Positions 23,391 through 27,027 of a stretch of 64,000 nucleotides of DNA are shown piece by piece. The stretch is from Candidatus Spongiisociaceae bacterium (GTDB lineage Bacteria > Actinomycetota > Acidimicrobiia > Spongiisociales > Spongiisociaceae), in the NCBI GenBank assembly GCA_965262915.1, contig OZ253564.1, forward strand, positions 1,984,001-2,048,000, given 5' to 3'. The notes beneath the pieces are model-generated. The model was not told where the DNA came from and did not search any database. It saw only the letters and a list, made by a program, of their open reading frames with translations. The translations under genes were made by a program, and so were the position numbers. How positions within the stretch are numbered: position 1 is the stretch's first letter; each line of letters begins with the position of its first letter.

Positions 23391-23619
23391 TCAACCCTCC
23401 GATTGTTACCCGGTGAAAAAGTCTGACAAAGGATACCGCCACCCTTAAGAATCCGAAAGAGGAGATCGGTGATGTTGTCTCGCTGATCGGCGAACGGTGC
23501 GTAGTACTGATCGGTGGCAAGCTCTGGCTGCCCGATCGTTGCTGGGAGACAAGTCCCTCGAACCTTCGCTAGTTCGGAGATGTCGCGTAGTGCATTCGGT
23601 ATAGCTTTGGTTGTTGCGG

Positions 23620-23814
23620 AGCGCCCCGGTGGCGGGTCTCACGGGTCCGAATCCCACTCCCACCACGGGCCGGTCAGCGGTATCGATCAGCACGTTCGTC
23701 ACACTAACACCTCGCAGGTGCAGTTGCTCGGACATGAGATCAGACACTGAGGCCTCCCTGGATCGGCGTCTTGGCTATTCGCCGATTCCAGCTGGGCCTC
23801 ACCCCCTTTCCAGG
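23620..23814 (-). pseudogene. ISL3-like element remnant (left end and transposase N-terminus) interrupted by the IS110
   Basis: GTG 23747 MSDLMSEQLHLRGVSVTNVLIDT; an RBS-sequestering hairpin precedes GTG; the remaining 33 bp of the left end (25347-25379, GGCTGCGCAGAAGTGTGGGG) lie on the other side of the IS110. Confidence 0.45.
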
Positions 23815-23830
23815 GATGCTCCTACGGTTG

Positions 23831-25060
23831 TCAAGTCGGTGACGGGGCGGGTTGGTGGGTTAGGAGCCAGTTGTGGTATTGGCTGGCGAGTTGGTGGTTG
23901 TGGTCTCGGCCGTGTTCGAGTTCTGAGATGCGGGCGGTGTGGGTTCGGAGGGCTTGGGCGGCTTGGGTGATGGTGATGCCGCCTTGTTGGCGCTGGTTGC
24001 GTAGGCGGGCGCAGTTCGGGGTTGGTGGCGGGTTGGTGAGTAGTCGGTAGATCTGTGGGGCGATGTGGCGTTTGAGGCAGCGGATGATCTCTTTTCGGTT
24101 CTTGCCTTCTCCCTGGCGTCTGGTCACATATTCTTTGGTGGCAGCGTCGGTACGTATCCGGGTGGTAGCGCATCGGCCACAGCGCTGTTGGCTTGGCGGT
24201 TGCCGCCCCGGTTGAGACGATGCCGTATGGTCTGTCCTGATGATGCCTGGACAGGGCTGGTGCCGCACAGCGCCGCGAAGGACGCTTCTGTTTTCATTCG
24301 CCCGGGGTTGTCGCCGGCGGCGACCAGCAGAGCGGCGGCTGTGTCAGGGCCCACACCGGTGGCGGCCAACAACGCCGGGTTCGCCCGGGCGCAGAGACGG
24401 CGGATGTCTCTCTCGAGTTGGGTGATCTCAGCGTTGAGGGTTTGGTATCGGCGGGCCAGGTGGCGTAGAGCCTTCTTCGCGTACGCGGCTGTGGTCTGTG
24501 CTTGGCCGGGACGCCAGCGGGCACAAACCGCTACTCGTGCTCTGAGGTTGAGGCCCTTGAGCTGGTGTTTTACCGGCTCTGGGGCACCAACGATCACAGA
24601 ATGGATCTGGTTAGCCGCCTGGGTGCGGGCCTTGGTCGCCCAGCGGCGGGCCACCAACAGCATCCGCAGGGCACTCAACCGGCCCATCACCAGATTTGGG
24701 AACCGCCGCCGCCTCCCCGCTAGCAGCCGCCCGGGCTGGTGCCTCGGCGTCGACGCTGTCAGACTTGCCGCCCTTCTGGCGGCGTAGTTGCCGGTTGGGG
24801 CGGTTCACCTCCACCACCTCGATGTCGGCTGCGGTCAGATAGCGAGCCAGGCCGGCGCCGTAGCTGCCTGTCCCTTCCATCCCGACCCGAACCAGCCGAC
24901 CCTGCGACCCGAACCAGGCGACCATACGCCGATACCCGGATGCCTCCGCGGAGAACGACTCCCACCCCAACAGCCGACCAGCGCTATCCACCAACGCCCC
25001 CACATGCGTATCCCGATGGGTGTCAACCCCACCGAAAACAACAACCCCATCTTCTGACAC
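23831..25060 (-). pseudogene. IS110 recombinase, frameshifted twice (~24668, ~24175), with C-terminal HTH extension
   Basis: GGVDTH (D), VGMEGTGSYG (E), GKSDSVDA (DD), GVGPDTAA.LL..AGDN, PVQASSG (Ser), RLNRGGNRQAN, IIRCLKRHIA. Confidence 0.9.
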
Positions 25061-25099
25061 GACCCACCTCCCCGTGGACTACCGTCTTTCCAAATGGGG

Positions 25100-25330
25100 T
25101 TCCGGCCAAAAACGGCAGACAATACACTCACGGTGCTGGCAAGCTAAAGCTCCTACAAGGTCATGTCCGCTTCGAGCCAAAACCCTCCCCCCGGACCGGG
25201 GACAGGCCGACAGATCCTTGGAAAGGCGCTCCACACGCCAGATTTCACCGGGGTCAGACCCGCCCCCGGTCCAACCGGGCCACCCATGCGCAGTGGCCGC
25301 CAAAGAACCGGACACCACCCATGGGACACC
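25100..25330 (-). ncRNA. bridge RNA of the IS110 element (predicted)
   Basis: 5' hairpin 25278-25298; target-binding loop 25193-25272; donor-binding loop 25115-25170; guides match the flanking target and the circle-junction sequences. Confidence 0.8.
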
Positions 25331-25623
25331 ACCCATTATGAGTGATTTCACCCCACCAACCCCACACTTCTGCGCAGCCTCAGAAAGCGCAGGCTTTGGA
25401 TAGCTGTCTGAGCTTGGGTGAATGGCCGGAGGGCTGGAGTCGGTTATGACTTCTGGTGTCAACAGCGACCAGGTAGGGCCGGATAGCTACAGGTATCGTG
25501 AAAGCCAACCGCTCACTCCCAAGGTTCTTCCGGCTGGAGCCCCGCGGTCGCACTCCACGGATTCTGTGGGATACAGGGTGGGACGAACACTCCGGAAATG
25601 ACTCTCTATCGGGACCTTTAACC

Positions 25624-27027
25624 GGCTCATCGGAATTCAGTGGGGAGTGACGGTCGCCGGCAGGTCCCAGTTCGGTGTTCCGGCGTGGAGGAGTGCCCGT
25701 ATTCGGTAGTTGGCGAAGTTGGGTAACCCGAACGCGCTCCGTTTGATGCGTTTGATGAGGTTGTTGAGGGCTTCGGTGGGTCTGTTGGTGACTCGGGACT
25801 GGTGCCAGTTGGTGATCTGAGTGGACCATCGGGCGATGACACGGCCGAGGCGGTTGATCTCGGGGGGCATGATTGGTCTCCGAGGTCGGTGGCGAGCTGG
25901 TTGGTGTATCCGACGGCGAGGGTCAGGAAGTCGACAGTGTAGATGCCTCGGACGGTTTCGGTGACGTGCCACCCCAGGCGGACTTCCCGTGGGGGTCGCC
26001 GGTTTCGAGGAGTCCGAGGAGTCGTGTTCGGCCGCGGTCGCTGATGCGTTCATGCGCTTTGGTGAGTCGGCGTGCTCCGTAGAGGGGATCGCGTTTGCGT
26101 CCTCGATAGCCCAGGGTTTCGTTCTGGACGCGTCGTCTGACCTCGTCGAGGCGATGGTTAGCGAGGCGCACGACGTGGAACGGGTCGGCGACCTGGCGGG
26201 CGGGGGGCAGCACCCGGTCGTAGGCAACGTGATAGGCGCCTGACATGTCCAACACTGCCCAGCGGACACCCGCAAGCCACTCGGTAGGCTGGGCCCGAAA
26301 CCAGGCGGCGTCACTGTCAGTTGTTCTACCACCGACTATGTCGGACAACTGTCGGCCGCCGACATCGACAACAGGCGTGCACCACTGCTTGGTATGCCAC
26401 CGTCCCCGTCGCCGGAACAACGTCTCGTCCACCCCCACAGCCTCCACCGCTCCGAACCGATCCTTGTCCGCTTCGAGCAGTGCTTCCCCCCAGCGTGCGG
26501 CCTCCTTGTTGACCGTATGCCACCCACAGCCCAACTCCGCGGCAACATCGTGGGTCGTCCGTCCCAGCCGACCGACCCCGATGGTCACCCACCTCCCGGC
26601 CCGAGAGGTCAACAACCCCCGTTCCGAGCAATCTGAGGGTCTTGTTCCACAAACGACCCAACACCACACGACTCATCCGGACATACCCAGCGGCGTTTCC
26701 GCCAACCGAGCCGTACCGGTCGGCCGAACGCCGGGAGGTCCACCAACACCACCGTCCGCTCCCCCTTGGACCACACCGGCCCGCCACAACCTTCACACAC
26801 CGGCCGGGCCCTACGGCTACGGATCACCACCCCCAGCGGCCCCTCTCCCGTGTAGTCGATACCTACCACTCAACCTTGCCCAGGCCACCAGCCGCTCGCA
26901 CATGTGCGCAGGGATCAGCTTCCACAGGGGGTCCTCCTGCCTCGGATGCGATTGCTGAACTCCGACTACGGAGGACCCCTCCTCACTTCCGGTAGATCAC
27001 CGAGTCCCCACTCATTTCCGAAGAGCT
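25624..27027 (-). mobile_element. ISL3-family insertion sequence with multiply frameshifted transposase
   Basis: imperfect TIRs GGCTCATCGGAATTCAGTGGGGA / AGCTCTTCGGAAATGAGTGGGGA; zinc finger CEGC..LVDLPAFGRPV..KRRW.CP; GVDET, LDMS..Y, ADPFHVVRLA, TEALNNLIKRIKR.AFG..NF.NYRIR. Confidence 0.9.

Follow-up and report, generated by a model that had tools for sequence, protein, structure and literature searches.

Does the non-coding left end of an insertion sequence (IS) in the genome of a Candidatus Spongiisociaceae bacterium encode an RNA that leads the element to its insertion site? The locus lies in a window of 64,000 nucleotides (nt), the whole stretch of DNA that was analysed (GenBank assembly GCA_965262915.1, contig OZ253564.1, positions 1,984,001 to 2,048,000), and belongs to an IS110-family element designated A1. 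An original prediction, made from the letters of the window, had read positions 25100-25346 as the bridge RNA of this element, with guides for its target site and its own ends arranged as in IS621. Our analysis makes it very probable that the bridge RNA of an IS110-group insertion sequence is encoded by 25113-25330. Observed directly were the matches of guides to flanks and element ends, their covariation between classes of related copies, a conserved scaffold with its stems and a promoter motif at the circle junction; by analogy with the biochemistry of IS621, the molecule would act as RNA and the strand-exchange chemistry would be of the same type. All features of A1 described below lie on the minus strand of the window, and statements on published systems refer to the excerpts of PMC11208158, PMC11208160 and PMC11187229 that were available.

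Guide segments in the left end of A1

Four guide-like segments were present where the original prediction had placed them and match the flanks and ends of A1. Two of these concern the target: GGTGAAATC (25249-25241) is identical to the left flank (25352-25344) at 9/9 positions and 12/13 positions of CCTTTCCAAGGAT (25226-25214) complement the right flank (23817-23805). The other two concern the element itself, with GTAGGAGC (25156-25149) identical to the right end (23825-23818) and TGAGTG (25130-25125) complementary to CACTCA at the left end (25344-25339). When 25100-25343 was shuffled 20,000 times by mononucleotides, the exact left 9-mer appeared in 12 shuffles, a match of 12/13 or better in one and the right-end 8-mer in 86, while the exact left 9-mer together with a match of at least 7/8 to the complement of the right-flank 8-mer was obtained in 1/20,000.

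In the numbering used for IS621, the left target comprises positions 1-7, the core positions 8-9 and the right target positions 10-14 (PMC11208158). Accordingly parsed, the left target guide GGUGAAAUC (25241-25249; 9/9 to the flank) consists of 7 nt for the left target and 2 nt for the core, covaries in 13 guide classes and shares its first seven nucleotides with the left target GGTGAAA (25346-25352, target positions 1-7). The right target guide (25214-25221) is composed of CCAAG (25221-25217), whose five variable nucleotides track the right flank, GA (25216-25215), the complement of the core, and U at 25214. The right target CCTGG (23810-23814, positions 10-14) has one mismatch to the CTTGG that the guide expects; CTTGG itself is found in the sister copy A2 and in 10 unoccupied sites. 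For the donor, the left guide GUAGGAGC (25149-25156) equals the right-end bases 23825-23818, and the right guide GUGAGUG (25125-25131) is complementary to the core C plus ACTCA of the left end.

Covariation of guides and flanks among sibling copies

A DNA search with A1 found 51 related places in its own 5.06-Mb genome, where a covariance model of the two loops (R1) gave 38 matches representing at least seven guide classes on one constant scaffold. R1 also matched in 27 places among 30 related loci, and in 10/30 of the relative genomes searched (11/31 with the own genome, G000, included; the tally for the relatives includes two matches in the unpublished genome G022, on which no other result depends); it was used instead of a strict regular expression for the target loop, which matched 7/30 related loci only. 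The 30 loci retrieved by a search with P0001, the intact recombinase of a D-type sibling, came nearly all from metagenome-assembled genomes (MAGs) of Acidimicrobiia or Acidimicrobiales, several with sponge-associated names. Since the relatives are titled Acidimicrobiia MAGs, calling the system actinobacterial, as the original prediction did, is reasonable at the phylum level.

Alignment of the left ends (21 copies plus six H copies) revealed a scaffold of the form GGGTCTGAC(C/T)C, 10 nt, TGGC, hairpin, GCCTT(T), 5 nt and GATCTGTCG. Differences in the scaffold between subfamilies were confined to the 10-nt and 5-nt segments, which change in step with the flanks. For this comparison of classes, the left ends were placed by their complementarity to the right donor guide, so that the left guide had no part in defining them. 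The flank following TC agreed with the expected right target in classes B (left guide ACTGAAATT, expected CCCAC), C (AAAGAACAC, AACGC), H1-4 (CGCGAAAAC, GTGGG), H5 (CCGGGAAAC, CGGGG) and H6 (CCTCGTAAC, ATGAC). Class A (GGTGAAATC, CTTGG) is followed by CCTGG in A1 and CTTGG in A2, and classes D-F (ACTGAAATC, GATGA) by GATGA or GAAGA.

The original prediction had named guide-target covariation among homologues as its decisive test, and this covariation turned out to be very strong. It was scored for 13 guide-class representatives, one per distinct guide pair with both flanks, taken from the own genome and from Acidimicrobiia relatives, with the left guide counted in the better of two registers. 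L031, L033, L040, L044 and L054 were omitted because they nearly duplicate classes of the own genome, L032, L038, L036, L056 and F4 were excluded as having only one flank, and L051 and L055, which a later regular expression left unparsed, stand outside the guide counts. Cognate pairs of guide and flank agreed on average at 8.69/9 positions on the left and 4.69/5 on the right, compared to 3.50/9 and 1.42/5 for the 156 non-cognate pairs. The observed total of 174/182 was reached by 0/100,000 permutations, the best of which scored 144. Individually, 32 of the 39 elements with both flanks scored at least 8/9 and at least 4/5; the seven below were D7, A2, B2, L031, L040, L052 and L047. Loci as distant as 51-58% protein identity kept the scaffold and carried new target guides that fit their own flanks, with 9/9 and 5/5 at each of L046, L048 and L050. 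Unoccupied cognate sites were present for four classes, while a search for unoccupied paralogues of the C-type site (two doubtful matches) and of the D7 site (0 matches) found none.

Some of the copies are rearranged. H1 and H2 (G000:C1:541968-546168) form an inverted pair around ~1.37 kb, and H3 and H4 (G000:C1:3638436-3641338 and 4419140-4422043) carry ~1.5 kb of other DNA that interrupts the donor loop.

Donor guides and a putative circle-junction promoter

The right donor guide covaries with the left end, UGAGUG accompanying CACTCA and UCACUG accompanying CAGTGA (seven distant loci), and the first base of the left donor guide is G (A, B and L031) or A (all other classes), following the right-end base. 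This makes the donor guides a shallow test of covariation, with no more than two variants observed of the right guide and two of the first base of the left guide.

When the two ends are joined, ..TAGGAGCA + TC + ACTCAT.. creates TTGACA (TTGCAA in H1 and H5), a 17-nt spacer and CATAAT, CATACT or CATAGT in 9/9 classes compared. In A1 the -35 box TTGACA (23829-23834) is situated in the right end, where it overlaps the stop codon of the recombinase, and the -10-like box CATAAT (25335-25340) at the start of the left end. The assessment of this promoter is at motif level. IS110 circles are described as rebuilding a promoter across their joined ends (PMC11208160). A terminator scan of 24950-25500 returned none. 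Just after the -10-like box, the left end of A1 has a 13-nt insertion compared to copy B1 (25309-25334), which looks like a tandem repeat of GGGTGGTGTCC...

Taken together with IS621 as the template, A1 would work as follows. The RNA would fold into a 5' hairpin followed by two loops, one binding the target and the other the donor. With its guides, the target loop would direct insertion to GGTGAAA-TC-CTTGG, a 14-bp site found in ISL3-family left ends, while the guides of the donor loop, GUAGGAGC and GUGAGUG, would recognise the joined ends of the circle (..GTAGGAGCA-TC-ACTCA..). The junction of the circle would assemble the promoter TTGACA-17 nt-CATAAT and thereby drive both the RNA and the recombinase, a DEDD/serine enzyme that would exchange strands at the 2-nt core.

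Fold and conserved stems

The IS621-type layout claimed for the left end, a 5' hairpin followed by a target-binding and a donor-binding loop, is borne out by the minimum free energy (MFE) fold and by the pairing of stems among the siblings. The MFE fold (z = -2.78) contains the 5' hairpin, the outer stem of loop 1, its inner GGCG/CGCC hairpin and the outer stem of loop 2, all of which had been proposed; the proposed inner stem of loop 2, GCT/AGC, is not conserved in D-H, and in the form GCT-TT-AGC this hairpin would have a loop of 2 nt. The 5' hairpin GGCCAC/GTGGCC (25278-25298) is paired in 3/3 of the sequences that have it (A, B and C) and is missing from the D-H classes, whose 5' region is shorter. 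The target-binding loop (25193-25272) is enclosed by an outer stem pairing 25272-25253 with 25211-25193 and includes an inner hairpin pairing 25239-25236 with 25228-25225. The outer stem of the donor-binding loop, GCGGACA/TGTCTGC (25115-25170), appears in the MFE fold as well as in the sibling pairing, where 5/7 pairs of this helix 4 were held and 75.8% of cells were paired.

Across the 13 sibling sequences, 84.2% of the stem cells were paired, compared to 40.5-53.0% when partners were slid by 1-3 columns. Helix 2, in the target loop, was paired in 86.5% of cells, with six pairs changed on both sides. A further helix that RNAalifold drew between ACTCAT and the right donor guide in the full left ends is read as complementarity of guide and donor, not as an RNA helix.

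Element A1 and its broken recombinase

A1 (23817-25343) is 1.53 kb long, starting with ACTCAT at 25343 and finishing with ..TAGGAGCA at 23817; these boundaries were drawn from sibling copies compared with unoccupied sites. It is assigned to the IS110 family because the pieces of its open reading frame (ORF) match the Pfam domains DEDD_Tnp_IS110 (PF01548; E = 2.9e-16 for piece 1) and Transposase_20 (PF02371; E = 2.3e-14). It also has the IS110-group trait of a long, RNA-bearing non-coding left end (25343-25061, about 283 nt) and a short right end (~14 nt beyond the stop codon at 23833-23831). The intact sibling recombinase P0001 matches PF01548 at E = 5.2e-25 and PF02371 at 7e-18, and aligns to the IS621 transposase chain 8wt6 (phmmer E = 2.8e-11). 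The stretches DTxxD, EGTGSY, KTDSVDA and SSGQ of this alignment are retained in the pieces of A1, where ..ASSGQ.. corresponds to ..YESGSS.. of the IS621 chain. Judged from the alignment, these stretches probably hold the DEDD and serine catalytic positions of IS621, and the same applies to the choice of the catalytic serine.

The recombinase of A1 is a pseudogene in three frames (23834-25060), recovered by tblastn with P0001 as 25054-24671 (residues 3-130), 24702-24178 (residues 120-294) and 24175-23834 (residues 296-409). These pieces are 77-80% identical to P0001 and free of internal stops, and the two frame changes lie near 24675 and 24176. The first of them (24671-24680) also occurs in copy B1 (locus L003), and both are found in A2 (G000:C1:2806495-2810804), the only sister of A1 and 99% identical to it. 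An ORF of at least 409 codons was seen in 20/24 other copies examined. Having a twice frameshifted recombinase, A1 is non-autonomous and would be mobile only if a sibling element provided the enzyme. Its RNA gene retains every invariant column of the scaffold in the sibling alignment, and the enzyme of the A subfamily seems to have been lost before the subfamily was copied. With both frameshifts in both copies, which sit in different ISL3 ends, it looks like a non-autonomous rider that has kept only the RNA.

Other observations concern the copies and their recombinases. A2 is split by ~2.8 kb inserted between RNA and ORF. The recombinase ORF of D1, D2 and D6 (loci L008, L009 and L013) runs to 441 codons, reading through the right end into the flank, and the usual stop after 409 codons seems to have been lost there. 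P0001 (locus L010:1708-2934) has a C-terminal helix-turn-helix (HTH) of the XRE type at residues 351-386, corresponding to 23834-24000 of the window (Pfam HTH_31 at 31.2 bits, cutoff 27; HTH_3 at 26.7 bits, cutoff 23). The 328-residue IS621 chain aligns only to residues 9-346 of P0001 and is therefore without a counterpart to this tail.

ISL3 ends as target sites

The insertion site of A1 is hosted by the remnant of an ISL3-family left end (23445-23816). Paralogous ends that are uninterrupted precede an ORF of 398 amino acids (aa) with DDE_Tnp_ISL3, Zn_ribbon_ISL3 and a sub-threshold HTH_Tnp_ISL3, while the window's own 100-aa ORF within the remnant had no Pfam match. In the ISL3 left end, class A inserts ~100 nt upstream of the transposase start and class H at a point 24 nt more distal; the ISL3 right end receives classes D-F, at 9 nt from its tip. 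Among unoccupied ISL3 right ends, 16 read CTGAAATCCGA(T/A)GA. One (G000 306085, minus) is without the extra C that is seen between the guide-matching flank and ACTCAT at, for example, L003, L010 and L027. Directly upstream of the A1 site lies a broken ISL3-family transposase (25380-26669) with DDE_Tnp_ISL3 on two overlapping ORF pieces, and the window as a whole is a nest of IS fragments.

Core size and length of the right guide

The original prediction had gone beyond a bridge RNA as such and proposed a 3-nt ATC core, a right guide of 13 nt, recognition of 17-19 bp and a specificity above that of IS621. This fuller version is unlikely in view of the crossover sequences and of the sibling guides. 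The trinucleotides at the left junction are ATC (A), TTC (B), CAC (C), TCC (D-F), AAC (H1 and H6) and ACC (H5), while every in-genome copy that has a right end reads ATC at the right junction (TC after ..GGAGCA). In A1, the left copy of the core, TC at 25344-25345, derives from the target: unoccupied sites of class A read GGTGAAA-TC-CTTGG (six exact, 10 with one change allowed). The right copy, TC at 23815-23816, is of the donor type. Unoccupied sites of class H read CGCG(A/G)AA-A(C/T)-GTGGG (n = 8), those of D-F CTGAAAT-CC-GA(T/A)GA (n = 16) and those of class B TGAAAT-TC-CCCAC (n = 3). ATC is thus found at the crossover of unoccupied class A sites only, being absent from the H, D-F and B sites, and it is also absent from the left junctions of 5/7 classes. 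Since only the C is shared across sites and the A travels with the element, we reject the 3-nt core; it is best read as 2 nt (N-C), with the A as the last base of the element.

The first core base varies (T, A or C at the left junction, T at the right), while the C at the second is the same throughout this genome. Left junctions retain the dinucleotide of the site (TC, AC or CC), and right junctions are always A-TC. In IS621, top-strand cleavage falls immediately 3' of the core (PMC11208158), and by the same logic the left junction would hold the target core and the right one the donor core. The simplest account, and the best reading of these junctions, has a left end starting ACTCAT.., a right end finishing ..TAGGAGCA and a 2-nt core with a fixed C, with GA of the right guide pairing with the donor-type core. 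Two handshake bases 3' of the right guide of IS621 pair with donor positions 6-7 after the exchange (PMC11208158), and U25214 may likewise be the handshake base for the last A of the element. GAU was constant in the parsed copies; L051 (guide GAA, right junction TTC) fits this handshake account and L050 (GAU with TTC) does not. The core bases in the guides are GA in the right target guide, UU or CU..U in the left donor guide and GU or GG in the right donor guide, the latter being GG in D-F and H5 and GU in the rest and following the CC or AC of the left junction, i.e. the core of the target and not of the donor, in 5/7 classes.

For a right guide of 13 nt speak the flanks, which match the 13-nt segment at 12/13 in A1 and 13/13 in A2, as well as AAAGG at positions 15-19, present in both occupied A-type sites and in 0/10 unoccupied ones (seven of which read AATGG). 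In IS621, extending the right guide by three pairs increased the efficiency (PMC11208158). With 95% identity over 103 nt between their right flanks, A1 and A2 amount to about one observation rather than two independent ones. The CCTTT of this segment belongs to the constant scaffold in 12/13 siblings regardless of target (the exception, H5, having CCTTA), its CC forms part of the invariant stem of the inner hairpin (paired in 13/13), and the flanks of other classes at positions 15-19 are unmatched: CCTGT (B), AGCCG (C), GCC.. (D-F) and TTGGG (H1). The part that tracks the flank consists of the five variable nucleotides plus GA(U), and firm recognition therefore amounts to 7 + 2 + 5 = 14 bp. 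Three extra pairs (UUU with AAA), giving 17 bp in total, are possible for the A subfamily alone, and a specificity above that of IS621 is unproven.

Alternative explanations

Internal copies of flanks and ends might also be read as DNA, either as subterminal sites for recombinase binding or homology or as by-products of insertion, with no RNA guide involved. The matches alone are silent on whether they are used as RNA or DNA, and no run recorded as RNA contains the A1 stretch; the segments, on the other hand, are located on the unpaired sides of loops that are enclosed by stems with compensatory changes, which is expected of an RNA and not of a protein-binding site. Their strand logic is that of IS621, with the 5' side equal to the top strand and the 3' side to its complement (PMC11208160), and the left end of an IS110-type element functions as RNA in trans (PMC11187229), making the DNA reading very unlikely. 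A second alternative, in which the folded left end does no more than regulate translation of the recombinase as a 5' leader and matches the flanks incidentally, might be argued from the position of this end directly upstream of the ORF, followed by GGAGG and a GTG start, and from older work that took IS110 ends for regulators of expression (PMC11208160). Such a leader cannot account for covariation of guides and flanks in 13 classes, nor for that of the donor guides; already contradicted by these data, it is hardly credible.

The bridge-RNA reading has to be set against several observations that weigh on the other side. Among the public runs, none recorded as RNA contains the A1 stretch. Four runs whose RNA nature was guessed were compared as contigs, which cannot show RNA ends, strand or level. 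Two of them, from one study, each contain one short contig (154-156 nt) with 0 differences, at 25128-25280 and 25113-25268; these contigs span just the two loops and are the only full-identity matches to A1 in the two runs, the parts left uncovered being uninformative. We take the two exact contigs as a weak hint of transcription. A strict sigma-70 scan of the integrated locus (24950-25500) found 0 promoters, the motif arising only from the joined ends. Rfam 15 was without a match over 25100-25346 at E up to 10, the scan of 23500-25700 giving only two chance-level matches elsewhere; the presence of a bridge-RNA family in Rfam was not established. In the MFE fold, parts of both target guides are paired with one another.

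Guides and flanks, too, do not agree throughout. Exceptions are D7 (5/9 and 1/5), A2 and B2 (7/9 on the left), L047 (5/9), and, with 3/5 on the right, L052 and L040. A displacement of one base separates the 9-nt left guide from its matching flank in classes B, D-F and H5 (the flank being guide + C + ACTCAT); the U following the guide may wobble-pair at the second core position, or these elements may begin one base earlier (CACTCAT in D-F), so that the single ISL3 end lacking the extra C (CTGAAATCGATGA) alone would be cognate. Finally, the recombinase is broken in A1 as well as A2 and six perfect 14-bp targets are still unoccupied, so A1 may be inert today.

Possible trans guidance and significance

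A wider idea is that the IS110 siblings form a shared system that exchanges target loops, donor loops and recombinases in trans, a modular, cross-guided recombination that disables ISL3 ends. We regard this as possible, though rather doubtful. In the model for IS621, the two loops used come from two different RNA molecules (PMC11208158). Copy D7 (G000:C1:3663635-3665083; locus L014) is D-type throughout, yet its site agrees with its own guides at 6/14 positions and with those of the C type at 12/14, a score of 12 or more with any class being reached by 10/200,000 random sites. The insertion of D7 may have been guided in trans by the RNA of a C-type sibling, which would explain its site. The A subfamily with its shared frameshifts and the right donor guide, which goes with the core of the target instead of that of the donor, would also fit a shared system. 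If true, the shared system would be a natural case of modular cross-guided bridge recombination.

With bridge RNAs predicted in 85.7% of the IS110 elements of ISfinder (PMC11208160), the presence of one here is not news. More useful is the natural experiment, in which at least seven reprogrammed target loops are carried on a single scaffold within one 5-Mb genome. Every class except C has unoccupied guide-matching sites or sibling copies at further sites, most with intact recombinases. The siblings thus provide a ready panel of guides and targets that are compatible and come from a lineage of high-GC actinobacteria, suited to working out the rules for the first core base, the handshake base and the extension of the right guide. 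They also offer a view of IS110 elements as site-specific disruptors of the ends of another IS family.

Comparison with known systems

The bridge RNA of IS621 has a 5' stem-loop, a target-binding loop and a donor-binding loop, includes the core in its pairings and is required in vitro (PMC11208160). A1 resembles it, as far as the excerpts go, in carrying the RNA in its left end, in the same order of stem-loop, target loop and donor loop, in a 9-nt left guide for the bottom strand and a right guide for the top strand, and in a 14-bp target (7 + 2 + 5) including a 2-nt core with a near-invariant second base, as in IS621 (PMC11208158). The promoter rebuilt across the circle junction and a recombinase of PF01548 and PF02371 with aligned catalytic stretches are likewise common to both. 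In contrast to IS621, the recombinase of the A1 lineage is distant (the phmmer value given above), ~80 residues longer and equipped with the XRE-type HTH at its C-terminus. The core is CT in IS621 and N-C in the A1 lineage, with TC in the donor and a first base that often differs between target and donor, and the native right guide has five specific nucleotides plus core, while the IS621 paper, in the part available, gives four. The A1-lineage host is one of the high-GC Acidimicrobiia with ISL3 ends as targets, whereas IS621 targets REP elements.

ISEc21, another IS110-type element, which has a seekRNA, requires its upstream non-coding region, supplied in cis or in trans, to form circles and to insert at its target; its ends abut in the circle, creating a promoter, and no duplication arises (PMC11187229). 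ISEc21 shares with A1 the type of upstream RNA region and the junction promoter, differs in host and lineage and is likened to it by description only. Also likened by description is ISAar29, one of six ISfinder elements whose bridge RNA was inspected by Durrant et al. (Extended Data Fig. 10 legend, PMC11208160). Like A1, ISAar29 is an IS110-family element with a predicted bridge RNA. Going by ISfinder naming, it presumably stems from an actinobacterium. DEDD elements of the IS1111 group reportedly home to the ends of other transposons, with a guide RNA downstream of the gene and long subterminal repeats. The classes in the A1 genome are similar to these in homing to transposon ends (D-F to ISL3 right ends, A and H to ISL3 left ends); unlike in the IS1111 group, the RNA of A1 resides in the left end.

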